Of a stretch of DNA of 32,000 bases, positions 7,828-32,000 are shown piece after piece; position 1 is the stretch's first letter; each line of letters begins with the position of its first letter. Source of the stretch: Polynucleobacter sp. 86C-FISCH (GTDB lineage: Bacteria > Pseudomonadota > Gammaproteobacteria > Burkholderiales > Burkholderiaceae); NCBI RefSeq assembly GCF_018882415.1, contig NZ_JACVOL010000001.1, positions 875,531 to 907,530 on the forward strand, read 5' to 3'. The notes beneath the pieces were generated by a model. That model saw only the letters and a program-made list of their open reading frames with translations. It did not search any database and was not told where the DNA came from. The position numbers were made by a program, and so were the translations under genes.

Positions 7828-8730
7828 ATGGAAATCCGCCACGTCATCTTTTTTATTTTTGTAGCGTCAGCTATTTATGTCTATTTCAGGGGAAAGGTGC
7901 GTTTTGGCGTAGTAAGGTCTCTTACGGACTACCAGGTGCTTCTAGCGCCGGTAAATACCCTGCTGTATCTCTTTTCAAAAGTGAAGGCCAGCGCCTTTAT
8001 TCCAGTTAGCCAATTTCCTGAGATGAAGCCCATTCAAGAAAACTGGGAAACCATTCGCCAGGAAGCGCTTTCTCTGCAGGAAGGTGGGTCAATTGCAGCG
8101 GCTACCGGTTATAACGACATTGGGTTTAATTCATTCTTTCGCACCGGCTGGAAGCGTTTTCACCTTTGCTGGTACGGAAAAGAGGTGCCGTCGGCCCAAG
8201 CTAAATGCCCGAAAACAGTCGCCCTACTGAAATCAATCCCCTCCGTCAAAGCGGCCATGTTCGCGTCGCTACCACCTGGAGCAACTTTGGTGCGGCACCG
8301 AGACCCCTATGCAGGCTCCTTGCGCTATCACATTGGCTTATCTACACCGAACAACCCCAAGTGCTTTATTGATGTTGATGGCGAACGCTATTACTGGAAA
8401 GATGGTGAAGCGGTGATGTTTGATGAAACCTACATTCACTTTGCCGCCAATGAAACCGATCAGCAGAGGATCATTTTGTTTTGCGATGTTGAGCGACCTG
8501 TTTACACCAAAGTTGTTGAATTATTCAATCGCTGGTTTGGGCGATACGTAATGAGTGCAGCCTCCTCTCAAAACGTAGAAGGTGAAAAAGTTGGGTTTGT
8601 TAATGTTCTATTTACCTATTTTTACCAACTTCGCGCGCAAGCCAAAAAGCTAAAAGCAAAACATCGCACTGTTTATTACGTAGGCAAGTGGGTGCTCATT
8701 CTGGGAATTTTGTGGGCTATTTTTTGGTAG
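7828..8730 (+). CDS. lpxO: Aspartyl/asparaginyl beta-hydroxylase family dioxygenase, LpxO-like lipid A hydroxylase
   Basis: A 300-aa ORF with N- and C-terminal TM helices. The motifs GWKRF, HRDPYAGSLRYHIGLSTPN and MFDETYIHFAANET closely match my memory of Salmonella LpxO. Confidence 0.8.
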   Translation: MEIRHVIFFIFVASAIYVYFRGKVRFGVVRSLTDYQVLLAPVNTLLYLFSKVKASAFIPVSQFPEMKPIQENWETIRQEALSLQEGGSIAAATGYNDIGFNSFFRTGWKRFHLCWYGKEVPSAQAKCPKTVALLKSIPSVKAAMFASLPPGATLVRHRDPYAGSLRYHIGLSTPNNPKCFIDVDGERYYWKDGEAVMFDETYIHFAANETDQQRIILFCDVERPVYTKVVELFNRWFGRYVMSAASSQNVEGEKVGFVNVLFTYFYQLRAQAKKLKAKHRTVYYVGKWVLILGILWAIFW

Positions 8731-8744
8731 GCTGAAACATGGTC

Positions 8745-9044
8745 TTAGGGACTCAACAGCTGAGCAATTTGCTCTGGACTAATGGGCCCCCAAATTTCCA
8801 CTCTTTTCTTGCGGCTATTTTGACCAGAAACAAATTGAATTTGCTTCTGAGGCACTCTTAATTGCTTAGAAAGCCAGGCCAATAGAAGTTCATTTGCCTT
8901 GTTTTCAAGGGCAGGCGCCTGTAGAGAAATTTTTAAACAGCCATCATGCAGACCAACTACCTTGGTTTGTTTTGCGCCTGGCTGGCAGTGCAAATTTAGG
9001 ATGATTCCAGTGGGGGTTTGTTTTAACCAAATAGGTGTCATCAA
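8745..9044 (-). CDS. yggU: DUF167/YggU (UPF0235) family protein
   Basis: A 99-aa ORF with the pattern ...GAKQTKVVGLHDGCLKISLQAPALENKANELLLAWLSKQLRVPQKQIQFVSGQNSRKKRVEI, typical of the YggU family. Confidence 0.8.
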   Translation of the reverse strand: MMTPIWLKQTPTGIILNLHCQPGAKQTKVVGLHDGCLKISLQAPALENKANELLLAWLSKQLRVPQKQIQFVSGQNSRKKRVEIWGPISPEQIAQLLSP

Positions 9045-9063
9045 AGTACTTTAAACTGAAACC

Positions 9064-9735
9064 ATGACGATGAAGAATTCCCAAGCTTTAGAGCAACTAT
9101 TTTCAAACAATCGCGCCTGGGCCGAAAGTATGGTGGCTAAGGATGCCAACTTCTTTAAGCGCCTGGTTTCTCAACAAGCTCCGGAGTATCTTTGGATTGG
9201 CTGCTCTGATAGTCGAGTGCCGGCAAATGACATTGTCAATTTATTGCCCGGTGAATTATTTGTTCATCGAAATGTTGCAAACGTAGTTGTCCATACTGAT
9301 TTGAATTGTTTATCGGTTATTCAATTTGCCATCGACTTACTTAAGGTAAAGCACATACTGGTGGTAGGTCATTACGGCTGCTCTGGTGTACATGCAGCAT
9401 TAACTGATAAGCGCGTTGGTCTTGCCGATAACTGGTTACGGCACGTTAAAGATGTGCATCAAAAACATGAGCGCTATCTGGGTGACATGATCCCAACTCC
9501 AAAACGTCAAGATCGATTATGCGAGCTCAACGTCATTGAGCAAGTAGTGAACGTTTGCGAAACTACTATCGTGCAAGATGCATGGGCGCGTGGACAAGAT
9601 CTAACGGTTCATGGTTGGGCTTATCGACTTGAGACTGGCCTTGTTAATGATTTAGGTATGTCAAGCAGCTCTATCGAAGAAATGACTGAGCGTTATGCAA
9701 AGTCAGTAAAGCGTTACGAACTAGCGCAAAATTAA
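9064..9735 (+). CDS. can: Beta-class carbonic anhydrase
   Basis: A 223-aa ORF with the zinc ligand motifs CSDSRVP and GHYGCSGV. Similarity to E. coli Can runs along its length (ELFVHRNVANVV, TDLNCLSV, LCELNVIEQV). Confidence 0.93.
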   Translation: MTMKNSQALEQLFSNNRAWAESMVAKDANFFKRLVSQQAPEYLWIGCSDSRVPANDIVNLLPGELFVHRNVANVVVHTDLNCLSVIQFAIDLLKVKHILVVGHYGCSGVHAALTDKRVGLADNWLRHVKDVHQKHERYLGDMIPTPKRQDRLCELNVIEQVVNVCETTIVQDAWARGQDLTVHGWAYRLETGLVNDLGMSSSSIEEMTERYAKSVKRYELAQN

Positions 9736-9736
9736 T

Positions 9737-10636
9737 TTGCTCAAATCTTTTTCTAACCATGTAGTCGTTGCACTACTCAAGCTTCTTGCGCTGCTACCTT
9801 ATAGATTATTAGTTGCCATTGGTTATGGGCTTGGCTTTATAGCCGCTCGCATTCCCGGCGATAGAAATCGGGTTGTAAAAACCAATCTGCGACTATGCTT
9901 TCCGAAACTAAGCTCAGCTGAAATTGATAGCTTAAGCAAACAACATTGGCGCTTACTCGGCCGTAGTCTTATAGAAAAAAGCATTATTTGGTGCGGTAGC
10001 TCAAAACAATTGAGCAATATGATCGAAGTGAAATCGGCCGTAGATCTTTCCAGCAAAAAACCTCGCATCTTAGTGAATATGCACTTCACCGGAATTGAAG
10101 GTAGCATTATTTTGAGTGCGCTTAGCAAAGAAAAGCACTGGCCACGTACTTCCGGATTTTTTCAGAGAATGAAGAATCCATTTTTTAATAAAAAAATTGT
10201 GGAATGGCGCAATCGTTTTGGCGGCAACTCTATTGATCGGCAGGGAAATGTTAAAGCCATCATTCGAGAAATTCGTAACGGTGACTTCATCATCATTGCG
10301 CCGGATATTGATTTAGGTCTCAAAGATTCTGAGTTCGTACCATTTTTTGGCATTCAAACTAATACGATCACCACGATTTCTCGCTTAGCCAAAATTACTG
10401 GCGCCGACGTGTGTCTAATGACAACCACCTTGAAAGCAGATGAATCTGGATATCTATGTGAAATTGGAAAACCATTAGAGAATTTTCCCGGGGAAGATCC
10501 AAAATCAGATACTGCCCGCCTTAACCAATACTTTGAAGATGAAATTCGACTGCGCCCAGCGGAATACTATTGGGTTCACAAGCGCTTCAAAAACCGCCCC
10601 GACAACAGTCCAAGCCCCTATAACCCTTCTATCTAG
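9737..10636 (+). CDS. lpxL: Lipid A biosynthesis lauroyl/myristoyl acyltransferase (LpxL/HtrB family)
   Basis: A 299-aa ORF with an N-terminal TM helix, the HX4E catalytic motif (NMHFTGIEG) and a C-terminal PAEYYWVHKRFK. The start is a TTG one nt after the can stop. Confidence 0.8.
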   Translation: MLKSFSNHVVVALLKLLALLPYRLLVAIGYGLGFIAARIPGDRNRVVKTNLRLCFPKLSSAEIDSLSKQHWRLLGRSLIEKSIIWCGSSKQLSNMIEVKSAVDLSSKKPRILVNMHFTGIEGSIILSALSKEKHWPRTSGFFQRMKNPFFNKKIVEWRNRFGGNSIDRQGNVKAIIREIRNGDFIIIAPDIDLGLKDSEFVPFFGIQTNTITTISRLAKITGADVCLMTTTLKADESGYLCEIGKPLENFPGEDPKSDTARLNQYFEDEIRLRPAEYYWVHKRFKNRPDNSPSPYNPSI

Positions 10637-13662: not shown

Positions 13663-15312
13663 ATTAACTGGCGCAAAATTACCATCGAAACCTCCACCAC
13701 CAGCACGCCAGGCGCAGAAGTACTTAGACGCCGCAGCTTTGCCATCATCTCTCACCCAGATGCGGGTAAAACTACGCTTACTGAAAAATTGCTGCTCTAT
13801 GCGGGTGCCATTCAAATTGCTGGCAGCGTTAAAGCCCGTAAAGCAAGTCGACATGCAACCTCCGACTGGATGGAGATTGAAAAGCAACGGGGTATTTCCG
13901 TAGCAAGTTCTGTGATGCAGATGGAATATCGTGATTGCATCATTAACTTGTTAGATACTCCAGGTCACCAAGATTTCTCAGAAGACACTTACCGAGTATT
14001 AACTGCAGTTGACTCTGCTCTCATGGTGATTGATGCCGCTAATGGCGTTGAATCACAAACATTACGCTTGCTGGAAGTATGCCGCGCACGCAATACGCCT
14101 ATTGTCACCTTCATCAACAAGATGGACCGTGAGGTAAAACCACCAATGGAACTCATGGACGAGATCGAAACTGCTCTCGGCATTGAAGTGGTTCCATTTA
14201 CTTGGCCAGTTGGCATGGGTAAATCTTTTGCTGGTGTGATTGACATTGCCAATATGCGGATGCGCATGTTCAAAGCGGGCGAAGATCGCGTTACCGAAGA
14301 CTCCCATGCGGTGGTTGATGTGAATGATCCGGCCCTTAAAGAGCGCCTAGGTGCTGATCTAGAGAATGCTTTGGCTGAAGTCGCGCTTATTAAAGAAGCG
14401 ATGCCTGCATTTGATTTGGAAGCCTTTTTGGCAGGGCGTCAGTCTCCAGTCTTCTTTGGATCCGCAATCAATAACTTCGGCGTGCGCGAGATTCTGAACA
14501 CACTAGTTGAATTAGCGCCTTCGCCAGGTTCACGCAAAGCATTGCAGCGCGAAGTGAGTCCCGCAGAAAACAAATTCTCAGCAGTGGTCTTTAAGATTCA
14601 GGCCAACATGGATCCGGCACATCGCGACCGAGTGGCATTTTTAAGAATCTGCTCTGGTCATTTTCAGCGCGGCATGAAGCTCAAGATATGTCGTAATGGC
14701 AAAGAGGTGCGTACCAATAATGCGCTTTCCTTCTTGTCACAACGACGCGATATTTTGGATGAAGCTTTTCCTGGCGACATTATTGGCTTACCTAATCATG
14801 GCTTGCTTCGTCTTGGTGACACATTAACCGAAGGCGAACAGCTTCAGTTCACCGGCCTGCCATTTTTTGCGCCTGAAATTTTCCGCATGGTTGAGTCTGC
14901 AGATCCACTGCGTTCAAAACAATTGCGAACTGGACTGATGCAATTAGGCGAAGAAGGTGCTATTCAAGTCTTTAGACCAATGGCCGGTGGCACGATGCTG
15001 CTGGGTGCATTTGGCCAGCTCCAGTTTGAAGTGGTTAGTCACCGACTCCAAACTGAATATGGCGCATAGGTGCGTCTATTACCAGCTCGCTACAGCCTGG
15101 CGCGGTGGGTAAGCTCAGACGACCCTGTTGCGCTAAAGAAATTTACCCAAGAAAACATTCATCGTATGGCCGAAGATGTTGTAGGTGCATCCGTTTTCCT
15201 GGCATCGCATAAATCGGAATTAGACGTTGCTCAACAACGCTGGGAATCAATTCAATTCCACGCACTGAGAGAGCATGCCGGTCTAATTTATCAATCAGAT
15301 TTAGCAGGCTAA
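13663..15312 (+). pseudogene. prfC: Peptide chain release factor 3 (prfC), interrupted by an in-frame TAG at 15067-15069 and lacking a canonical start codon upstream of its P-loop
   Basis: The frame is open from 13663. It encodes ...[43 protein letters not shown]... (G1 motif at about 13741-13776), DTPGHQDF and NKMD. After the TAG the same frame continues with conserved RF3 C-terminal sequence (VRLLPARYSLARWV...FHALREH) to 15312. It may be a pseudogene, a sequencing error or a readthrough gene. Confidence 0.85.
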
Positions 15313-19124: not shown

Positions 19125-19316
19125 GCCGCTCCCCCTGTCCTTGATACCTGAGAGATTCACCCTAAGCGTAGCTTAGGGCTTGCTCCTTCGGTGCACCATA
19201 AAAATGGTGGCTCTCCAGACGGCTATTTAGGATAAGCAGTACCTTCCTGGTGGATACCTGAGCGTTCATGGGAGTTTGCGCCTTCGGTGGAGGGAGACCC
19301 CTCACTCTCCTGCTTA
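19125..19316 (-). promoter_or_regulatory. Tandem glycine riboswitch (two aptamers)
   Basis: These are minus-strand reads. Aptamer 1 is AAGCAG-GAGAG...CACCGAAGGCGCAA...CTCAGGTATCC...GGTACTGCTT, with P1 formed by AAGCAG/CTGCTT. Aptamer 2 is CTGGAGAG-CCACC..GGTG-CACCGAAGGAGCAA-GCCCTAAGC..GCTTAGGGT-GAATCTCTCAGGTATCAAGGACAG. Both match the conserved cores of the glycine riboswitch family (Rfam RF00504, from memory). Confidence 0.85.
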
Positions 19317-21220: not shown

Positions 21221-21246
21221 AAATAAAAAACCACCCGGAGGTGGTT
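21221..21246 (-). terminator. Rho-independent terminator immediately 3' of the tRNA-Phe fragment
   Basis: On the minus strand the hairpin AACCACC-TCCG-GGTGGTT is followed by TTTTTTATTTT. It begins 12 nt after the CCA end of the tRNA fragment. Confidence 0.8.
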
Positions 21247-21257
21247 TTAGTATTTCT

Positions 21258-21302
21258 TGGTGGCCCGGGGCGGAATCGAACCACCGACACAAGGATTTTC
21301 AA
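21258..21302 (-). other. 3' half of tRNA-Phe(GAA): displaced att-site remnant, not an intact tRNA
   Basis: The minus strand reads TTGAAAA-TCCTT-GTGTC-GGTGG-TTCGATT-CCGCC-CCGGGCC-A-CCA. That is the anticodon loop with GAA, the 3' anticodon stem, the variable loop, the T-arm, the 3' acceptor strand, the discriminator and CCA. The required 5' acceptor strand GGCCCGG and a D-arm are absent from the next ~60 nt. Confidence 0.75.
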
Positions 21303-21700
21303 ATATCCTCCGATAGACCGCTTCGTCTATGAAATCAATTGGTTACGCCACCCCAGACATTTCGTGCGCAAAATTTACATAATGCGTCGGTCAAAATTTC
21401 GAGCGTAATCAGAAAGTTACGATAGCGTGCATAAACTGTGCACAAGCTCAAAACATTTATGTGTCAGTCAAAAATTAGTTCGGCCCCTACTCGTAGCGCC
21501 GAACTTTGGATCGAATCTCAGCAGTGCCACCAAGCTTTTTTCGAAATCCTGCGGAAGCCACACGCCACAGCTACGTGTCATGTCGTTTTAAACGACAATT
21601 CATTTTTGCTATGTCCGTCAGCCATGCAATTTGTCAACCAGCATTTAATTATTTCAACTTGAATACCCCATCTAAATGGCGGTTTTGACGTGATAGGTGA

Positions 21701-22040: not shown

Positions 22041-22478
22041 TTACTTACCAAATCCCGCACGTACAGCTCCGCTGGCTTGCTCAATCTGTGCATCAAGCTC
22101 TCCAGCTTCAACAGCACTCTTAATAATCTCTAATGTTTTAATCAATTCTTCACCTGAGGCAACTTCAACTGCTGTTTTACCTTTTGCTAACTCGATTAAT
22201 TTGGCACCATAGCGCACGTTTAAGCACACTTTTCCATCCGCCGAAACAAACCACCACTGTCGCACACGCTTTTCTAATTCAATCGATTTTCTAGATCCAT
22301 CAACATCTTTTACTGTTCTAAATCTTTTTACAGTAAAAGTCCCGCCCTCCTTGTGCGCCTTTGCTAACTGAATCTGCTCCCAGACTTTGGTGGATAACTT
22401 ATTTCTTCGTTGCAAGATTGGTGGAATAGCTGTTGGTTTTTTGGCATTCACAAGTTTTAATCCATTTAATGTGCTCAT
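22041..22478 (-). CDS. Hypothetical island protein (145 aa from the preferred start)
   Basis: An ATG at 22478 (MSTLNGLKLVNAKK...) sits 6 nt downstream of a strong AGGAGA. The track ORF extends 10 codons further upstream without an RBS. I cannot name a family. Confidence 0.6.
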   Translation of the reverse strand: MSTLNGLKLVNAKKPTAIPPILQRRNKLSTKVWEQIQLAKAHKEGGTFTVKRFRTVKDVDGSRKSIELEKRVRQWWFVSADGKVCLNVRYGAKLIELAKGKTAVEVASGEELIKTLEIIKSAVEAGELDAQIEQASGAVRAGFGK

Positions 22479-23205
22479 TTCATTTCTCCTATTAGTTAAT
22501 GGGCACACTTAAGTTAATGTCAGTTTTCCAAGAAGAGCAACCGAAATCATGTCAAATCTAATATTTCAACTCAGCTTCTTAATCCTTTTATTTGGTTTAG
22601 CTAAATATCTATGACTAATAAAGCAGAGGAAAGCTTTATTCGTCAACAATTACTACTGAAATGAGAAGTGGCACTCAGTTGTTATGTCACCCTAAACCTA
22701 GTCAACCGTGTTCGTAGGGATGGAAATTCTGAGCAGTAGCAGAGACTTGTTATCACCATCCTTTACAGGACGCCATTAGCATTGCTAGCTAATTGATACG
22801 AGAATATTTGTACAGCATAAAGTCAGTAGCTTTTAAAGCTACAGTGACACGAGAAAGCCCTGCTTACACAGCAACTTTCAAACAAGACAAAGGTAGCCAC
22901 TTATGCTTTTGTCATTGTTGCGTTTTAAAGCCGCACATAAAAGGAGAAAGCGAAACCGCCCTTACCCAATGTGGTTGTGCCCTAAGTGGTGTAGTAAAAG
23001 AACTCAGCAAAAGTCTACTTCTACACTGTGCCCGTTGCTTAAGGCTCAGTGTAGGTTGAATCTAGCAAATGCCCAACAGCAATACTCAGTAGTCTTAAGA
23101 AAAAAAGTGTGATGAGCGATAAGCGAAGAACGAGCGAACCAGTTCGCTCTAATACATTTATTAATGTCATAATTAATCTCGTTCTCTATATGAAACAGGA
23201 AATAT

Positions 23206-23708: not shown

Positions 23709-23742
23709 AAAATGTAATAGAACTGCTGTTCTATTACATTTT
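23709..23742. repeat. 15-bp perfect inverted repeat (hairpin/operator) carrying the TATTACATTT motif
   Basis: The repeat is AAAATGTAATAGAAC-TGCT-GTTCTATTACATTTT. A third copy of TATTACATTT lies at 23835-23844, just upstream of the recombinase RBS. Confidence 0.7.
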
Positions 23743-23855
23743 CTAGCTAACCACTTGATATTAATAAGGAAATACTGAAGGCATATTTCGGTTGCTCAAA
23801 CCAAACCAAAGAAAACATACTGTAGACGCTTATTTATTACATTTAGGAGCTACTT

Positions 23856-24422
23856 ATGTCACAAGCAAAAATCTTAAACCCCGTTGAACTACGCCGCGTG
23901 CTTGATCACGTATCCACACGCAAGCATTCTGCTCGTAATCGTTGCGCCCTGCTACTTACCCACTATGCAGGAATGCGTGTTGGCGAGGTGTCTAGTTTGC
24001 GAATTAGCGACGTTTTGAACGACAGCGGCACAATTAAAGAAGAAATACGTCTCATGCCAGACCAAACTAAGGGGAAACACGCTCGCACCGTTTATATCAA
24101 TGCCCGCATGCAAAAAGAGCTGGCTCAGTACATCAAAAGCTTGAAAATTAGAGATATAGAGAAACCTCTGTTCTACACACAAAAGAGGGATGGCTTTTCA
24201 GCAAACACTTTGACTCAGTATTTTTTCTTTCTCTACAGAAGGGCGGGTGTTGATGGGGCAAGTAGCCATAGTGGACGCCGTAGCTTTTTAACGGGGCTAG
24301 CTAATAAGGGTACGGCCATACATATTTTGAAAAGCCTAGCAGGTCACAGAAACATCGCAACTACTGCTTCGTACCTATACTCCAGCCCAACCCAACTAAA
24401 AGCGGCCGTAGAACTTATTTAG
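23856..24422 (+). CDS. Small tyrosine recombinase, catalytic domain only (FimB/FimE-like size and layout)
   Basis: A 188-aa ORF with the catalytic residues in order: R (GMRVGEV), K (TKGKH), HxxR (HSGRRSF), H (GHRNIATT) and Y (ASYLY). An AGGAG RBS precedes the start. There is no N-terminal arm-binding or SAM-like domain. Confidence 0.85.
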   Translation: MSQAKILNPVELRRVLDHVSTRKHSARNRCALLLTHYAGMRVGEVSSLRISDVLNDSGTIKEEIRLMPDQTKGKHARTVYINARMQKELAQYIKSLKIRDIEKPLFYTQKRDGFSANTLTQYFFFLYRRAGVDGASSHSGRRSFLTGLANKGTAIHILKSLAGHRNIATTASYLYSSPTQLKAAVELI

Positions 24423-25305
24423 AAGCCTTCTTTGCTGATTGCGACTTTTTATATCGTTGATATATTTCTTCGTAGTTAAAGTCAGGCAAGTCAATTGGCG
24501 TAGAGCATGGGAAATTGCCCCTCGCCGCATGCTCTACAGTTCGCTTAGCCTTTAGTAAGAATCTACTGGTCAATATTTGCATGTTGATTCTTTGATCAGT
24601 AGTTTTTGAGGTTACCTTTACCGCCTTGGCATCTAGTCCCTCCATATTGGCTGGGCTCACGTTTGCAATTACACCTAATCGCCATAGCTCTAAATTAGGA
24701 TTGGCAGCCTTGTTTCTCAATAAATGAATCATGGTGAATAGGGGCGCAGATCTCAATCTTTTTGCCGCTAACGATTTTTTAGCTTTCTGCGCCTTTACCG
24801 GTACAGACACCCCTGCTTGATCAATTAACTTAGTTACTTGACTCAATACATATCGCTTATTCATCCCCAGCGGCACTGAAAGGATTAGCGATGGGACTTC
24901 ACCCTCCTGCATCCGGGACGTTTTAAAGTAATGATCTAAAGCACGATGAAAGGCAGAATCAACCTTCTCCCCTTTTTCAACATTGGCAATAAGTCTGACT
25001 TTGGGCTTTTCAAAATCAGTTCCGTAGATATAAATGCCGCGCTCTTTCCACCACTCATTAAATGTAATAGTAGAAAGATCTCCAAATTCTTCGTAGGTGG
25101 ATAGAACTTGATCAAAGTCTTTTGGCAAAGACTTTTTCTCCGCCCTGCTTAACCCTTCGTTATTGGCCTTTCTAGCCAGCTCGTATGTTGGGCTTAACTT
25201 CATAAATTCCAACATCAGCATTACGTAGCCCTTAATTCCAACCGTAGACCACTCTTTCATGGCCTTTGTAGGCAATAAGTTGGCTGATTTTTTCTTAATA
25301 GGCAC
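24415..25305 (-). CDS. Hypothetical protein (296 aa), divergent from the 255-aa/AAA+ pair
   Basis: It has a GTG start at 25305. Both termini are Lys-rich and the central part looks globular. Its 3' end overlaps the recombinase 3' end by 8 nt. I recognise no family. Confidence 0.6.
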   Translation of the reverse strand: MPIKKKSANLLPTKAMKEWSTVGIKGYVMLMLEFMKLSPTYELARKANNEGLSRAEKKSLPKDFDQVLSTYEEFGDLSTITFNEWWKERGIYIYGTDFEKPKVRLIANVEKGEKVDSAFHRALDHYFKTSRMQEGEVPSLILSVPLGMNKRYVLSQVTKLIDQAGVSVPVKAQKAKKSLAAKRLRSAPLFTMIHLLRNKAANPNLELWRLGVIANVSPANMEGLDAKAVKVTSKTTDQRINMQILTSRFLLKAKRTVEHAARGNFPCSTPIDLPDFNYEEIYQRYKKSQSAKKASK

Positions 25306-25307
25306 AC

Positions 25308-25368
25308 AAAGATATTAACACTTAAGAGTGACTATTAACAGTCATTTTTTTAAAGTGTCAATATCTTT
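25308..25368. promoter_or_regulatory. Nested palindromes in the divergent promoter region (putative operator)
   Basis: The outer 16-bp inverted repeat is AAAGATATTAACACTT (25308-25323) and AAGTGTCAATATCTTT (25353-25368), with one mismatch. It encloses an inner repeat TGACT-ATTAAC-AGTCA, and ATTAACA occurs twice. Confidence 0.6.
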
Positions 25369-25445
25369 ACAGTGAATACATGGCAAGTGAGAACAAATTA
25401 ATTCACAAACCATACTTTTAAACACACATAGAAAGGTAGTAAATC

Positions 25446-26213
25446 ATGAACACATTAGTTAACGAAGTAACAGTAGCAAACAACGTCGTTTCAAACGACA
25501 CAGCAACCATCAACTTTGATGCAAGTAAGCCATTACTTAACTTAGAGGCTAAACGCATCTATTGGGAGCAAGGAGCATATCGCACCAGCAACCAAGAGTT
25601 GTATGGAATTCTTGCCGAATGTCTTGGGTATGCATCAATCACCTTAAGTACGAAACAAGCGAGGGCGAGAGCTGAAGCATTAGAAGAGTTCTTTAAGACT
25701 CGCGGGTATAAACATAGCGCAGATATGCCTCTTGTTACTCGCGTTGTTAAGGCTGTATTTGGTAACGTTGATAGACGACGTATTAGCACCTATTCCTTAG
25801 TCCTGCGACAAGCAGTTAAAGAGGGCGTTACAGCACTTGATCTGCCAACATGGATTGAAGATAAAGGTGGCGTTCAAGAAATCAAACTTGGTCATAGCGC
25901 AACCTATGTAAGCCCAAAAGCAAAAGCTCAAATTGGCAAACAATACTTTGATGGAAAAGTAATCCTTGGCAATGCCAAATCTGAATTGCTATCACATGTA
26001 GCTGATGCCGAGTTTATGGGCACATCTTGTGTGTTGCTAGCAGAGCAGATGGCCGATGGCAGTTTTGATATTAAAGCTGTTGTTCGCTCTACTTCAGTTG
26101 TGAATGCGGCTTACGTGGCTCTTTATGGTCACCAAAACAAAGTTATGGAAGCTGCCAAAAAAGAAGTTGAAGCGGCTAATGATGCTGTCGGCAATATTGC
26201 TAAACAAGCTTAA
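25446..26213 (+). CDS. Hypothetical protein (255 aa), upstream partner of the AAA+ ATPase
   Basis: GAAAGGTAGTAAATC precedes the ATG. The protein looks mostly helical. It lies 50 nt upstream of the ATPase gene on the same strand. I recognise no family. Confidence 0.65.
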   Translation: MNTLVNEVTVANNVVSNDTATINFDASKPLLNLEAKRIYWEQGAYRTSNQELYGILAECLGYASITLSTKQARARAEALEEFFKTRGYKHSADMPLVTRVVKAVFGNVDRRRISTYSLVLRQAVKEGVTALDLPTWIEDKGGVQEIKLGHSATYVSPKAKAQIGKQYFDGKVILGNAKSELLSHVADAEFMGTSCVLLAEQMADGSFDIKAVVRSTSVVNAAYVALYGHQNKVMEAAKKEVEAANDAVGNIAKQA

Positions 26214-26263
26214 TCAATTAACGGGAATGTTATGAGCATTCCCCATTCAGAAAGGATATAAAA

Positions 26264-26944
26264 ATGTTAATCAAACAAGGGGGTGTTTATGAACCGCAAA
26301 CTCTTAATGACATTATTTTCGGTAACCCCGAAAGTAAATTGCGAATTTATGACATTGTCACAGGTGCCGAGCCATTACCTTCAAGCGGCAAATCAGCCAT
26401 TCTTCTCTATGGAGTCTATGGCACAGGCAAAACAACCATGGCAAAAATGCTGCCTGACGCACTCGAAAAAGGTAAAACAGGTTTAGAAGTAAACATGCCT
26501 GCTGACTTTATTGGTTGCCAACAAGGACTTAATGGTCCGCAAGTGATGGATTTAATTGGAAAGATAACATCAACTAATTCATTCAACACTAGTGGACTTC
26601 ACTACATCATTATTGATGAAGTGGATAACTTAACTAAGCAGGCGCAAGCTAGCCTTAAATCCGCACTTAACTGTCAAAGATGCATATTTGTTTTAACCAC
26701 AAACAATATTTCATTACTTGACAGGGGCATGCTTGATAGATGTGTCTTGGTAGAAATGAATGCGGCTAATGATGCCCAGCTATTACCGATAGCTCATCAA
26801 TTATTAAAAGATATTGGGGTTGATATTTCTGATGCTGAATTATTGCCAACAATTAGGGCGGCCAATGGTTCGCTTAGGAATATTTCTCACAATGTACGAC
26901 GGTTAATACAACGTCAAAACATACCTTCTAACATCATCTTTTAA
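26264..26944 (+). CDS. Clamp-loader (RFC small subunit/DnaX/gp44)-like AAA+ ATPase lacking the C-terminal collar
   Basis: It has Walker A (GVYGTGKTT), Walker B (IIIDEVDNL), sensor-1 (VLTTNN), an SRC-like arginine-finger motif (MLDRCVLVEM) and a sensor-2-like motif (ANGSLRN). It opens with the clamp-loader-style YEPQTLNDIIF. The ORF is only 226 aa. Confidence 0.8.
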   Translation: MLIKQGGVYEPQTLNDIIFGNPESKLRIYDIVTGAEPLPSSGKSAILLYGVYGTGKTTMAKMLPDALEKGKTGLEVNMPADFIGCQQGLNGPQVMDLIGKITSTNSFNTSGLHYIIIDEVDNLTKQAQASLKSALNCQRCIFVLTTNNISLLDRGMLDRCVLVEMNAANDAQLLPIAHQLLKDIGVDISDAELLPTIRAANGSLRNISHNVRRLIQRQNIPSNIIF

Positions 26945-26951
26945 CAAGAGT

Positions 26952-28226
26952 CTATGCCAATTGCTCTGCCGCCATAGTAGGAGTTAGTTTGGAATAGTGC
27001 CGCTCAATCATCGCGGCACTATTTCCCATTTGCTTAGCCAGCGTGTGAATATCAGTCTTATTCTCCAGTAGCTCTAAAGTCGCATATGTATGACGCAATG
27101 AATACAAAGTACGCATTTGCCCATCTTGACTCTTACCCAATCCACTATCACGCATGAGTTTCTTAAATGTCCCATCTATACGCAAAGGCTGATGTCCGTC
27201 TGCCATTACAAATATCTTTTGCGGGGCACGAGATTCAAATAATCTATCAAATGGAATGTCATATACGGCTTTTTGACGACTATGTAATCGTCTAAGAACA
27301 TCAATAGCCCTATGTTTAGCAATTAACCAACGCCCACCAGTTTTGCCATCCACCCATATACGCAAGTACTTCTTGCCATCATTTGTGTGCCACTCAATGT
27401 TATTCCAACAGATATTAAGTGCCTCAGTGCCATGCCGCATTCCAGTCAATAACAGCATCTCTACGTAATCTCGCACTAATGGACGAATCTCACGCTCAAT
27501 CTCTAGACGACCTTCTTTAGCCCACCTCTCCATATAGTCAAATAACTTGGTAATCTCTTCGCGGCTAAATGCTGGGCGAGTTTTGCCCTTGTGCCCTCGG
27601 GAAGTTAACTTAGGGATTGCCACACGCTCACTAATCCACCCCTTATTAACAGCCGTCTGCTGTAACTTTGTCCAAGCACTAGAAAAGTTCATTAGGGTGC
27701 TGGCTTTGGGCACTAGTCGCATTTGTCTGTTTCGCCAAATCTCAAACTCATGAACGTCTGTGTAGGTTATTTCTTCTAGTCGCTTATCCTGAAAGTAAGG
27801 CAAGAAGTATTTCTCAATACAAGTGATGTAACTTAGGTAAACCACCTTACCAATGCCTTCATCCAAATCACGTCGCATTTCGTACAGAGTGGTGTGCGCT
27901 ATTTCTGCGAACGTAGGAGCTTTTTGCGCAAGCCCCAAACGCTGGCGAAATCTGGCTTCATCGTATAAGTCACAGGCCACTCTGACAGCATGCTCAATTG
28001 AAGCTTGCTTAGTTGAAACACGCTCCCATGTGCCGTTTTGTCGTTTAAAACGACATTGCCAGAGAGGGCTATTTGGTCTACGGAAGATAACAACCTCACC
28101 ATCACGCAGATAAAGCTCTGCGGGCTCTGCGTATTTAAGTTGGCTAAGTGTTGTGGGTTGGTGATGCTGAGGTGGTGAGGGTATAACTTCTAGATTTATA
28201 AGTTTAGTTACTACGCCCTTAGGCAT
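26952..28226 (-). CDS. Tyrosine-type site-specific integrase
   Basis: A 424-aa ORF with an N-terminal arm/core-binding region and a C-terminal catalytic domain (LLLTGMRHGTEAL, YSLRHTYATLELL, IERHYSKL). Confidence 0.9.
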   Translation of the reverse strand: MPKGVVTKLINLEVIPSPPQHHQPTTLSQLKYAEPAELYLRDGEVVIFRRPNSPLWQCRFKRQNGTWERVSTKQASIEHAVRVACDLYDEARFRQRLGLAQKAPTFAEIAHTTLYEMRRDLDEGIGKVVYLSYITCIEKYFLPYFQDKRLEEITYTDVHEFEIWRNRQMRLVPKASTLMNFSSAWTKLQQTAVNKGWISERVAIPKLTSRGHKGKTRPAFSREEITKLFDYMERWAKEGRLEIEREIRPLVRDYVEMLLLTGMRHGTEALNICWNNIEWHTNDGKKYLRIWVDGKTGGRWLIAKHRAIDVLRRLHSRQKAVYDIPFDRLFESRAPQKIFVMADGHQPLRIDGTFKKLMRDSGLGKSQDGQMRTLYSLRHTYATLELLENKTDIHTLAKQMGNSAAMIERHYSKLTPTMAAEQLA

Positions 28227-28302: not shown

Positions 28303-31300
28303 CTATTTATTCAGGGAGATGTATGCTCCATTGCGCTGAAACAATTTACCCACCTCCCTGTCTAATACCTTTTGAATAACGATTTTTAAATCGGGTCCGC
28401 ATCTCTGGAAACCAAACAATCTAGATACTTGCTGTACAAGTTCAGCATCTTCTATTTGTACACTACTTTTAACTAAATGCTCTAACGCAACAGCTATCTC
28501 AGCAGGAGGAATGTATTCAGCCTTTTCAAGATTCTTATTAACAACAGATGATCTATTCCGCACAACTTTGTTAACCTCTCCAGCAACAGACCAAAAGCCA
28601 CCTTCATTTGTAAGTCCATTTGCTAGCCTTAAGCCCTCAACCGTAGCCGCAACAATCCTTGCTCCAGCCTTCTCTAAGTCAAATGCCTTGGCAACCCTTC
28701 TTGCCACTTCATCTTGATGAATTGGAGCCTCAATCTCAACAATCTTTTTGACTAGCTTTGACCTCTCATAAACAGAAACTTCGTGGGGAGCCTTGTTTCT
28801 TGAGAAAAATTTCTCATTAGATTCAACATAAGGAACGACTACATCTCTTGGCTCATCCACAATTGCTTGGGGCTCAAAAATATCGACGCTTGGCTCAACC
28901 ACCTCTGGGTTAACTTCTTCTATCTCGCTAGGGTTCTGTAGAGAAGCCAAATAGTCCAATAATTTTGCTTCTTGGTCTTGGCGCCTATGGAACCAATCAG
29001 TGCTCCATATTCTGTAAATCTTCCAGCCACGACTCTCTAAAATCTCTTGTCTAAGTCTATCTCTATCCCGCGCAGATCTAGAAGAGTGATAAGTTGCGCC
29101 ATCACACTCAATACCGCAATAAAACTTGTTTTCATTGCTTGGATCAATTACCCCTATGTCGATAAAGAATCCTGCCATACCAACTTGAGGCTGAACTTTA
29201 TATCCATGTTTAGCAAGAAACATAGCAACGGATTCTTCAAAATCACTATCAAACCCTTTTTTAGTATTGATAGGAACATCAAAGTATCCTTTTTCAGCAA
29301 ACTGAAGAAATTCTTTAAATGCGTTAACACCCAATTTCCCAGGAGCAGACTTAACATCTTCTGCCGTTATGGAAGAAAAGACGGTACACCTTTCCTTGGC
29401 GCGAGAAATTAATACATTCAGCCTTCTTTCTCCACCTTCTGCCGCTAAGGGCCCGAAGGTCTGAGTTAAGCGGCCATCCTCGCTTCTTCCATAACCAACA
29501 GAAATGAAGATTACATCTCTCTCGTCGCCCTGAATAGACTCTAGATTTTTAACAAAGAAGTGTTCATTTTTCGCATCAGAGAAAAATGCTTCTGTATCAG
29601 GATTTTTTCTTCTGTGCTCATCAACCAAATCACGAATAGCATCCCGTTGCGTTACCGAAAATGCCGCAACACCCAAAGATTTATTTGGATTAGCCTTAGC
29701 AAACGCAATTACTTCTTTGGCTATTAACTCAGCCTCCAAAAGATTTCTACCGCCATCAGAACCACCTCTTTTATAACCATTCTGCGGAGACTTAATAAAA
29801 GAAACTCCTAAGCCATCAGCATAGTTACTTCTTAATACAGAAGGTGGAAGCAGAAGCTTATCGTCATAAAAATTTCTATTGGATACAGCAATTAAACCGG
29901 GATGTTGACTTCGGTAATGCCATCTGAGCATCGCATTATTTTGAAATACTCCATCACACAACCCTAAAATACTTTCAACATCACTAAAGAAATAAGCGCC
30001 ATCATCATCAAGCATCTCTTCTTGATCTACATCATCAGTGAGTCTATTAAAGAAATTTGTAGGCGGGAGTTGCTTGGCATCACCCACAACTACAACCTGT
30101 TTAGCTCTCGCAATTGCTCCCAAAGCATCTTCCGGCTTAACCTGACTGGCCTCGTCAATTAATATCAAATCAAATGTCATTGACCCTGGAGCCACAAACT
30201 GGGCTATTGACATAGGGCTCATCAAAAATACAGGCTTAAGCTCATGAATGGCTCGCCCTGCCTTGGAAAGCAGTTTCCTTACAGGGAAATTATTTCTCTT
30301 TTTGGACATTTCTTGACGAATAATTGCCATCTCGCCATTAGTTCCCCGAGGACAATTTTTTGAATAATTGCCTAAAACTTCCTTGGCTGCTATTTTCAAT
30401 CTGTCTTTATCTGACTTGCGGAACTTGTCCAATTCACGATCTAATTTAAACGCATCAATATCTGACAAATAAGTGTCAGAAATAACCATAGCCTGCCATA
30501 TCTTTTCTAGGATTGAAACGCGAATTACAGCTTCAATATGATCAGCCTGAATTTGACCCTTAAATATTTTGTCGTGACACTCCGACCCAATCTCATCAAA
30601 TAAATTACTTAGATGGTTGCGAACTGTCGGCCATTCGTTAAATCTATCTAAATTTTCACTCCACTGCTTTACTTGTTTATCTAAATCCAAATATGGCAAT
30701 GGTTTTAAAAACTCAATGTTTATTTTTGCTGACTGACAAGAAGTTGTTAACTTGTCCTCAAACTCTTTATTTGCTTTTTTAAGATCGTCAACCAAATCCC
30801 AAGCACTTTGTTTGCCAACTAAATTTTTAGCAATGCGCAATCTAATGCCATCTAGACCAGCAAATATCAAATGCCAGTTAGCAACTTTCAATAAAAGCTC
30901 ATAATCACTTTGCTCTTGCTTCCAAAGCTCTTCTAATGCGCTCACCAACTTAACATCAGCGACCTTAATATCTTCTCTATTCTTTTTAAGTGTCAGCGCC
31001 TCATCCAAAAGAGCGAGCCGATTTTTAAACCCTTTAGGTAAATCGCTTTTTAATAAACCCTTTAGGCTTGCTATTGAGCTTCTATATACACCATTAAATA
31101 TTGAAAAAATTGAACCGCCACTACCCGCTAGCTTCACCCTTAATTCACCTATCGGGTAAGACTCCCATCCATCAATGAACTTCTCTTCAACAGTCTTTTT
31201 AGCTTTTTGATATCCCTCAATTTTCAAAGCCAACTCAGATAATTGGCTCGCATTTTCTTTAATCTTTTCTGAAAGAAGTATTTCGTATGAAACCGCAGGC

Positions 31301-32000
31301 GCATCTTTGATTGTTGCTGTTATTTCAAACAACCAATTCAAATCTTCTAATGTAAATTTTTCAACATCACTCAATTCCAACTGAATGGCAGCAATCACTC
31401 CATTGAATAGCGTTTGAGCTGAATTATTTAATAAACTTAATTTCTCAAATTCACCTTCCAATCTCTCGATATCCATTGGGGTTAATGAATTAGATGTAGA
31501 CATTCGCCAAGGATGATTTTCAGGAATGCCTGATTTTTTTAATCGCTCACTTAAATCACTTAAACGATTAGTTAAATCATCCAGCTTATCTTTTGTGTAG
31601 CCTATGGCATTTGGAATTTCAAAGAAGAAAACATTTAATCCCAAACGATGAAGTTTAGAAATTTCACCAAGTACCTCATAAGGAGTGAACCCCCAAGGCT
31701 CTTTACGATCATTTACTCGTTTGGCATGATTATTCAGAAAATTTTGACTTTCTGTTAATGCCTCAAACGCTTTGCCTGAAACTTGTAATTGATCAGGCAA
31801 CTCAACTGAATCTCTTATTTGCTTGAGAACGCCACTCTTTGTCGCCTTCCTACTATGTAGCTCAAGGCAGGTAACGCCCAAACCAACTTTCGCCAATCTT
31901 TCGTGTACAACATTAAGTGCTGCCATTTTTTCGGCAATAAACAGAACCTTCTTGCCTTGCGCCACTGCGGCCGCAATGATATTGGTGATTGTTTGAGATT
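28303..32000 (-). CDS. Giant SF1 (Upf1/Dna2-like, AAA_11/AAA_12) helicase fused to a DUF559/Vsr-like endonuclease fold and a DUF3320-like C-terminus; N-terminus off-window
   Basis: The frame stays open past the GTG at 31965 to the window edge (...SQTITNIIAAAVAQGKKVLFIAEKMAALNVV, the tail of a GKSQTI-type P-loop). Helicase motifs present are LILIDEASQV, VVGDAKQLPPT, WHYRSQHP, IQGDERDVIF and GGERRLNVLISRAKE. The nuclease-fold block is FFIDIGV...CGIECDGATYHSSRSARDRDRLRQEILESRGWKIYRIWSTDWF. Confidence 0.88.
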   Translation of the reverse strand, partial: SQTITNIIAAAVAQGKKVLFIAEKMAALNVVHERLAKVGLGVTCLELHSRKATKSGVLKQIRDSVELPDQLQVSGKAFEALTESQNFLNNHAKRVNDRKEPWGFTPYEVLGEISKLHRLGLNVFFFEIPNAIGYTKDKLDDLTNRLSDLSERLKKSGIPENHPWRMSTSNSLTPMDIERLEGEFEKLSLLNNSAQTLFNGVIAAIQLELSDVEKFTLEDLNWLFEITATIKDAPAVSYEILLSEKIKENASQLSELALKIEGYQKAKKTVEEKFIDGWESYPIGELRVKLAGSGGSIFSIFNGVYRSSIASLKGLLKSDLPKGFKNRLALLDEALTLKKNREDIKVADVKLVSALEELWKQEQSDYELLLKVANWHLIFAGLDGIRLRIAKNLVGKQSAWDLVDDLKKANKEFEDKLTTSCQSAKINIEFLKPLPYLDLDKQVKQWSENLDRFNEWPTVRNHLSNLFDEIGSECHDKIFKGQIQADHIEAVIRVSILEKIWQAMVISDTYLSDIDAFKLDRELDKFRKSDKDRLKIAAKEVLGNYSKNCPRGTNGEMAIIRQEMSKKRNNFPVRKLLSKAGRAIHELKPVFLMSPMSIAQFVAPGSMTFDLILIDEASQVKPEDALGAIARAKQVVVVGDAKQLPPTNFFNRLTDDVDQEEMLDDDGAYFFSDVESILGLCDGVFQNNAMLRWHYRSQHPGLIAVSNRNFYDDKLLLPPSVLRSNYADGLGVSFIKSPQNGYKRGGSDGGRNLLEAELIAKEVIAFAKANPNKSLGVAAFSVTQRDAIRDLVDEHRRKNPDTEAFFSDAKNEHFFVKNLESIQGDERDVIFISVGYGRSEDGRLTQTFGPLAAEGGERRLNVLISRAKERCTVFSSITAEDVKSAPGKLGVNAFKEFLQFAEKGYFDVPINTKKGFDSDFEESVAMFLAKHGYKVQPQVGMAGFFIDIGVIDPSNENKFYCGIECDGATYHSSRSARDRDRLRQEILESRGWKIYRIWSTDWFHRRQDQEAKLLDYLASLQNPSEIEEVNPEVVEPSVDIFEPQAIVDEPRDVVVPYVESNEKFFSRNKAPHEVSVYERSKLVKKIVEIEAPIHQDEVARRVAKAFDLEKAGARIVAATVEGLRLANGLTNEGGFWSVAGEVNKVVRNRSSVVNKNLEKAEYIPPAEIAVALEHLVKSSVQIEDAELVQQVSRLFGFQRCGPDLKIVIQKVLDREVGKLFQRNGAYISLNK

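Follow-up and report, generated by a model that had tools for sequence, protein, structure and literature searches.

What does a clamp-loader-like ATPase do on a mobile island when it lacks the collar that would hold it in a ring and no clamp gene lies nearby? The question is raised by 32,000 nucleotides (nt) of DNA from Polynucleobacter sp. 86C-FISCH (NCBI RefSeq assembly GCF_018882415.1, contig NZ_JACVOL010000001.1, positions 875,531 to 907,530 of the forward strand), a stretch referred to here as the window and numbered from its first letter. Two adjacent genes on its forward strand encode a 255-amino-acid (aa) protein, p255 (25446-26213, +), and a 226-aa ATPase of the AAA+ class (26264-26944, +), and a convergent gene encodes a 424-aa integrase; these open reading frames (ORFs) are as an earlier note, made from the sequence alone, had described them. 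The pair had been presented there as one that could not be assigned to any described replication, partition or defence module, and both checks made on that statement left it standing: the ATPase falls outside families of defined function, and the 255-aa gene is conserved as its neighbour. The comparisons reported here place the pair in the conserved backbone that serves the life cycle of a large family of tRNA-targeting islands and not in their variable cargo. A tentative preference is given to a role in replication or maintenance of the island after its excision.

Few freshwater bacteria are as abundant as Polynucleobacter and its relatives, and differences between strains arise largely from genomic islands. 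The mobility machinery of those islands is undescribed, and the module considered here, together with its conserved neighbours, forms the unvarying core of a single, very large family of islands.

The 226-aa ATPase

The full RFC/DnaX-type motif set that had been claimed for the ATPase was located in its sequence, namely Walker A (GTGKT, residues 53-57), Walker B (IIIDEVD, 115-121), sensor 1 (TTN, 145-147), an arginine finger (DRC, 158-160) and sensor 2 (GSLRN, 202-206). Walker A, Walker B, the sensor 1 TTN, R159-C160 and the sensor 2 R205 show no variation across 21 homologues, the most distant of them at 40% identity. Clamp-loader small subunits (RFC-S, gamma/tau, delta' and T4 gp44) share with it an N-terminal adenine-binding YxP box, Walker A and B, the sensor 1 TTN, the SRC-type arginine finger (here DRC) and the sensor 2 arginine in a helical lid. 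Unlike them, the ATPase family has a motif of its own, QQGxNG, which is likewise kept across the 21 homologues.

Clamp-loader small subunits are also the best matches of the ATPase in both sequence and fold, especially the constructs restricted to domains I and II (PDB 2chg and 1njg). Profile searches matched PHROG 168 'clamp loader' (1e-21, profile positions 15-214 of 314) and the NCBIfam models for the RFC small subunit (3e-12) and the DnaX N-terminus (1e-11), and in a search of PDB human RFC5 was aligned at 8e-9, with residues 9-207 of the ATPase on residues 8-198 of 320. An AlphaFold model (pLDDT 80, pTM 0.74) was compared with PDB using Foldseek, and the top 50 matches were clamp-loader subunits only (E. 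coli gamma, yeast and human RFC, and archaeal RFC). Template modelling (TM) scores on the target were 0.43-0.51 for full-length subunits versus 0.60-0.67 for 1njg and 2chg.

The better TM scores of the domain I+II constructs and the RFC5 alignment, which ends at residue 198 of 320, agree with the earlier observation that the protein stops before the collar. It ends 20 residues past sensor 2 and has no C-terminal domain. Since homologues are 219-254 aa long (best 120 of 1229), the short length is a family trait rather than the result of truncation. In clamp loaders, the C-terminal domains build the collar that holds the pentameric ring together (PMC3331839); the ATPase has no such domain III and hence no built-in pentamer. 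Judged by sequence and model, it is an active-looking clamp-loader-type AAA+ module consisting of domains I and II, with the collar gone, and it keeps a trans-acting arginine finger yet possesses no built-in means of oligomerising.

The genomic setting differs from that of clamp loaders as well. The ATPase lies on a mobile island and not in a replication gene cluster, and its partner p255 has no similarity in sequence or fold to any clamp-loader subunit. In agreement with the earlier reading, no sliding clamp, delta-like, gp62-like or other clamp-loader gene was found nearby by Pfam searches of the 28 larger ORFs in the window, a scan that excludes short or nested ORFs. Lacking both a collar and a cognate clamp or partner subunits, the ATPase is not filed here as a clamp loader, though it may make use of the host clamp. 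A clamp-loader motor detached from its collar and from an encoded clamp, and paired with a new protein, matters because its target would extend the known roles of this AAA+ clade.

Assignment to another family of defined function was examined and no family fitted. Curated models scored far below their cut-offs (RFC 46 bits versus 303; RuvB, TIGR00635, 20 bits versus 299). RuvB was rejected on that score, on a RuvB_N match of E 0.004 and on the absence of its C-terminal domain; RarA was rejected because its C-terminal domain is likewise absent, the name 'RarA' being only an automatic Joint Genome Institute label. IstB_IS21, DnaC and TniB were not among the Pfam or NCBIfam matches, and a faint PHROG match to 'DNA transposition protein' (E 0.004) covered 50 residues. 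Membership of a system in PADLOC-DB 2.0 was also rejected: p255 had no match and the ATPase only generic P-loop matches, for example to TRIP13 (1e-6 over 87 residues). The C-terminal NIIF was considered as a beta-clamp-binding motif and set aside, the tail not being conserved beyond the closest lineage. A literature search found nothing on clamp-loader-like ATPases in islands, or on DUF6641, the family of a neighbouring gene.

The partner p255 and the operon

The earlier note had called the 255-aa protein an orphan of no recognisable family. It still has no recognisable family, as none was found in Pfam, NCBIfam, PHROG or PADLOC, but it is no orphan: there are 719 close homologues, and an exhaustive profile search recovered 950 clusters at 50% identity (E <= 1e-3; 563 at E <= 1e-10), nearly all of 250-300 aa. 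No Pfam domain was found in distant members of the family. Helices, a long C-terminal one among them, make up most of its predicted structure, which also has a small beta unit; family alignments revealed conserved motifs (W-E, TSNxxLY, VFGxxDRRRxSxY, GGV(Q/E)EI and a C-terminal AAND). A profile search of PDB identified no sequence relative; a 50-residue match to pyruvate kinase was judged spurious and disappeared with a broader profile. The AlphaFold model (pLDDT 74.6) had no fold match by Foldseek in PDB (best E 0.89) or BFVD (best E 0.068).

Conservation of the pair was assessed in a locus set composed of the window, 14 loci from genomes or assemblies (cited by number where needed, L001 being that of P. 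yangtzensis) plus 80 metagenome loci that represent a remote branch of the p255 family. Pairing was counted in non-redundant loci with at least 500 nt of sequence past p255. An ATPase homologue follows p255 directly on the 3' side and on the same strand in 85/85 of these loci, with a median gap of 58 nt, and the pairing persists to about 28% identity in p255 and 40% in the ATPase. The two genes form a single co-transcribed unit. In L012, from a metagenome-assembled genome of Rubrivivax, the p255 gene (8402-9910) is interrupted by an insertion of about 1.5 kb with a 502-aa ORF, probably an insertion sequence.

Between the two genes lies a GC-rich stem-loop, GGGAATGTT-ATG-AGCATTCCC (26223-26243, +). 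A hairpin of this kind begins about 8 nt past the p255 stop codon in all 81 distinct loci (81/81), which carry 65 different arm sequences; its median z is -3.3 versus -0.5 for coding controls, and a T-run follows it in 21/81. Because the structure is kept despite sequence change, it suggests an attenuator or a stabiliser of the mRNA end, either of which would make p255 more abundant than the ATPase.

Upstream, the 140-nt control region between p255 and a divergent gene for a 296-aa protein, p296 (24415-25305, -), contains the sequence that had been called a palindromic operator ahead of the pair. The inverted repeat (25308-25368) is real, with 16-nt arms (25308-25323 and 25353-25368) that are complementary at 15/16 positions across a 29-nt spacer. 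Its status as an operator is a matter of interpretation, and there was no match to the sigma-70 consensus in the region, so that the repeat is retained as a candidate operator. The control region is identical at 154/155 positions in P. yangtzensis. In other lineages the corresponding place is taken by inverted repeats of different sequence, such as CCATCGCAGCAAC-12-GTTGxxGCGATGG. Homologues of p296 (16-37% identity) occupy the same position in 52/63 loci by single-sequence search. No family was found for p296 in Pfam or PDB apart from one weak match to a transcriptional-regulator-like domain, and the protein is a candidate regulator of the pair.

The conserved block

The description of p255 and the ATPase as a two-gene module was right as far as the pairing goes, but the pair belongs to a larger conserved block of about 5 kb. 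The block comprises a DUF6641 gene (22041-22508, -; Pfam 1.5e-15, PHROG 31551), the Polynucleobacter-1 RNA (Rfam RF01718; 22663-22800, +; 90.4 bits versus a gathering score of 37), p129, the 188-aa tyrosine recombinase Int188 (23856-24422, +), p296, p255 and the ATPase. None of its non-recombinase genes has a known function. The DUF6641 gene, the furthest upstream, was found in most loci. The RNA lies between DUF6641 (-) and p129/Int188 (+), and it was found at the same position in L001 (6397-6534), L007 (527-662), L008 (7058-7196), L009 (7690-7825) and L010 (7308-7443); it is a fixed component of the island backbone. To our knowledge, no function has been proposed for this Rfam motif since 2010, and the orphan RNA now gains a genomic context on a mobile element.

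Int188 and the p296-family gene are separated by a variable slot, which holds nothing in the window. Elsewhere (L013 5560-9008, L014 3789-6965 and L004 7753-8094) it contains a restriction-modification (R-M) pair, a 787-aa protein or a small ORF; the slot is a second cargo site within the backbone.

In P. yangtzensis (AP026974), which has a near-identical block, DNA homology to the window runs from 21597 as far as the ATPase stop codon (26944) and no further. Relative to two integrase lineages, 44% identical to each other, the block is found either way round. The block acts as an exchangeable module.

The island, its integrase and its cargo

The placement of the pair on an integrative element, already proposed from the window alone, is supported by the left end of the island, where a displaced 3' half of tRNA-Phe(GAA) (21258-21300, -) was identified by alignment to the intact tRNA-Phe of L012, beside a terminator hairpin at about 21225-21250. 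The same tRNA-Phe fragment is directly repeated at both island ends in L009 and L010, and an intact tRNA adjoins the large integrase in L012-L014. The window therefore holds the left part of an island inserted at tRNA-Phe, and the right end falls outside it. A reading of the left-end tRNA-like tail as tmRNA was rejected, since it had no Rfam or ARAGORN match and aligns to tRNA-Phe. About 200 nt inside the left end there is a second tRNA-like fragment in the opposite orientation, comprising a T-arm and acceptor (TGGATCGAATCTCAGCAGTGCCACCA, 21507-21534, +), which may be left over from another attachment site. In P. yangtzensis, the same backbone is contained in a 13.5-kb island between direct repeats of about 160 nt (1792-1951 and 15281-15440 of L001) that include the 5' half of a tRNA-like sequence with a CAT anticodon, and an integrase of a different lineage (44% identity) flanks the block from the other side.

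The large tyrosine integrase of the window, Int424 (26952-28226, -; PHROG 1 integrase, 2.5e-31), converges on the ATPase, and the two stop codons are 7 nt apart. This spacing, to which the earlier note drew attention, is correct for the window but is not conserved: orthologues of Int424 lie 0-9 kb downstream of the ATPase with cargo between, and in an alternative layout the 44%-identical integrase is upstream beside DUF6641, in the opposite relative orientation. The abutment is local and incidental.

A tyrosine integrase and a displaced tRNA 3' fragment, the latter repeated at the ends in L009 and L010, identify the element as a tRNA-integrating genomic island; the general kind is known, the backbone undescribed. 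The same two features are found in the 'additive' Polynucleobacter islands, tycheposons and PICI-like elements, which it further resembles in tandem accretion and in mixed defence or metabolic cargo. Hallmark genes of tycheposons and PICI-like elements are a lineage-specific integrase, a primase, helicase or polymerase, an excisionase and packaging genes (bioRxiv 10.1101/2020.12.28.424599). Unlike the described tRNA islands, the element has a backbone gene set (Int188, p296, p255, the collar-less ATPase, DUF6641 and the Polynucleobacter-1 RNA) that is unrelated to these hallmarks, and searches of the backbone with Pfam, NCBIfam and PHROG found no excisionase, primase, helicase, polymerase, capsid, terminase or packaging genes. 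Identity with a Gamma-Mobile-Trio island was rejected, the sole match being that of Int188 to GmtY at 21.5 bits against a cut-off of 340.

Named hosts of the family are Polynucleobacter, other Burkholderiaceae, Rubrivivax and Methylotenera, and 437 confirmed relatives were obtained in a single metagenome scan. The module had no relatives among 72,556 PLSDB plasmids, and p255 was not found in IMG/VR. In phage and viral collections (50,697 phage records), the ATPase had only relatives of 22-30% identity, mostly full-length clamp loaders.

Beside the integrase, the window carries as cargo a large helicase-nuclease anti-phage protein of the ProA / PDC-S37 (Hhe-like) type (28303-32000, -), which is cut by the window end and scores 980 bits against the NCBIfam ProA model (model positions 689-1903). 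Cargo in other loci includes Mrr, type I R-M, HipA, porin, TonB and binding proteins. Defence cargo of this kind (ProA/PDC-S37, R-M, Mrr, HipA), together with the fact that the nearest phage relatives of the ATPase are phage clamp loaders, would suit an anti-phage or interference role, in which a decoy or minimal clamp-loader-like ATPase and a sensor poison or hijack the clamp or loader of phage or host. Such a role is unlikely, as the pair is universal syntenic backbone and not swappable cargo, has no PADLOC model match and no effector domain (nuclease, TIR or transmembrane segment), and is linked to recombinases rather than to defence genes.

A possible role in replication or maintenance of the excised island

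Placed in this backbone, the pair is read, as a possibility rather than a probability, as an initiator or adaptor plus AAA+ loader module that serves replication or maintenance of the excised island. In the proposed mechanism, a regulator would act on the inverted repeat common to the p255 operon and the divergent p296 and so switch the operon. The hairpin past the p255 stop codon would attenuate or stabilise the transcript and leave p255 as the more abundant partner. p255 would supply oligomerisation and recognition of DNA or of a target, with the ATPase as catalytic subunit. After excision, the pair would recruit or load onto the circular island a part of the host replisome, namely its beta clamp or its helicase, and so allow the island to be copied or maintained, and Int188 with its palindrome, described below, could resolve multimers of the copied island.

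Several observations support a replication or maintenance role. Pairing is strict in 85/85 loci and the hairpin is conserved in 81/81; the catalytic motifs are invariant and the fold is that of clamp-loader domains I and II; and the pair is backbone while the flanking cargo varies. A divergent, fast-evolving neighbour with lineage-specific inverted repeats recalls repressor/early-operon switches, and the backbone offers no other recognisable candidate for a replication gene. Tycheposon- and PICI-type islands are described as having small replication modules next to their integrase (bioRxiv 10.1101/2020.12.28.424599).

The arrangement also resembles lambda O-P and the pairs of an O-like protein with a DnaC/IstB-like protein in lambdoid phages and PICI/tycheposon modules, being two co-oriented genes, adaptor then ATPase, located just downstream of a divergent regulatory region and near an integrase on a tRNA-integrating element. 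It departs from these initiator-loader pairs in that the ATPase belongs to the clamp-loader clade and not to the DnaC/IstB clade, in that no origin, primase or helicase is recognisable, and in that the module is not common to phages or plasmids.

These departures weigh against the replication or maintenance role, together with further points. Known helicase loaders are of the DnaC/IstB clade and not of the clamp-loader clade. The backbone yielded no primase, helicase or known initiator fold, neither iterons nor a DnaA-box cluster were found (12 boxes versus 7.9±2.7 expected), and no circular contig occurred among the fetched loci. It is also strange for a replication module to be missing from all 72,556 plasmids and 50,697 phage records. 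Finally, the strict link to Int188 suits a role in recombination at least as well.

Int188 and a possible role in recombination

Int188 is a tyrosine recombinase reduced to its catalytic domain (Pfam Phage_integrase 6e-25, residues 7-176), and it stands upstream of the pair in 49/49 loci with enough sequence. About 147 nt upstream of it is a perfect palindrome, AAAATGTAATAGAAC-TGCT-GTTCTATTACATTTT (23709-23742), readable as 15-4-15 or as 13-8-13, with a half-site repeat at 23828-23852. Lineage-specific palindromes of different sequence occur at the same distance from Int188 in more than 12 other lineages, as fits a co-evolving recombinase core site or an operator, for both of which the palindrome is a candidate.

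The alternative suggested by this linkage is that the pair is a recombination accessory, with p255 binding specific DNA sites and the ATPase remodelling or activating the synapse of Int188, Int424 or both, thereby setting direction or target. It is held to be possible but doubtful, and nearly as likely as the replication or maintenance role. Besides the 49/49 association, it would account for a recombinase that has no core-binding domain: an ATP-dependent switch would suit Int188, which lacks a DNA-clamping domain of its own. The occurrence of the block in both orientations against two integrase lineages 44% identical, its sharp homology borders at 21597 and 26944 and the absence of the module from plasmids and phages point the same way.

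FtsK controls XerCD, and MuB, TnsC, IstB and TniB help DDE transposases. The resemblance to these lies in a small ATPase that is strictly inherited together with the recombinase of a mobile element; the differences are that the ATPase lineages are not the same (the present one is not of the MuB, TnsC or IstB type), that the recombinases here are tyrosine recombinases and that no TniQ- or TnsD-like selector is present. We know of no tyrosine recombinase that needs an AAA+ partner, and DNA binding by p255 is purely hypothetical.

The 17-nt palindrome

A second class of candidate site is the 17-nt palindrome TGTCGTTTNAAACGACA, found at 21581-21597, 25484-25500 and 28039-28055, that is, 3 copies versus 0.04 expected. 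All three are in the island part of the window and none is in its 21 kb of core genome. The middle copy, CGTCGTTTCAAACGACA, is within p255 codons 13-18 (VVSND). The 13-nt core lies within the 5' part of p255 in 12 loci, just past the ATPase stop codon in 7 and across the stop codon in 1 more. In related loci the palindrome is placed in coding sequence (p255 'VVSND' and Int424 'CRFKR'), at cargo gene ends and beside attachment-site (att) repeats, and many sites were found in L001, L004, L007 and L009-L011.

Its position in the 5' end of p255, past the ATPase stop and next to att repeats favours a recombination accessory, and two facts, the palindrome and the Int188 link, fit that role better than replication. 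Against it, the palindrome is frequent at cargo gene ends in other loci and may be widespread in these genomes or islands in general.

Repeated sites could also serve partition or compaction, with p255 binding scattered palindromes as a centromere or nucleoid protein and the ATPase acting as motor or loader, by a logic like that of ParABS. Several copies of one palindrome, one of them inside the p255 gene itself as parS is in spo0J, would be in keeping with this, as would an adaptor that is probably made in excess. The reading is nevertheless highly improbable. A ParB-type p255, considered for its DRRR motif and the palindromes, was rejected when the family profile was compared by hhalign with an approximate Spo0J sequence (0.15% probability), and neither ParBc (Pfam) nor a ParB-like fold (Foldseek) was found in p255; the ATPase is not ParA-, ParM- or TubZ-like, and the fetched contigs gave no sign of a long-lived extrachromosomal state.

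A bolder reading extends to the whole block of about 5 kb, which might be a self-contained, previously unrecognised recombination machine. Here p255 would be the detachable collar and DNA selector of a split clamp-loader-like ATPase that assembles or activates the minimal recombinase Int188; the structured RNA may assist, the 17-nt palindromes would be the sites, and the machine would move the block or cargo between islands. This must be regarded as improbable.

Other features of the window

The window opens on the left with 21 kb of ordinary chromosome, containing mreBCD, PBP2, rodA, prfC, a glycine riboswitch (19125-19228, -) and a redoxin gene. The prfC gene for release factor 3 (RF3; 13789-15312, +) has an in-frame TAG at 15067-15069, after which the frame resumes with a normal RF3 C-terminus; a nonsense mutation, an error in sequencing and a site of recoding are all conceivable explanations of the TAG.

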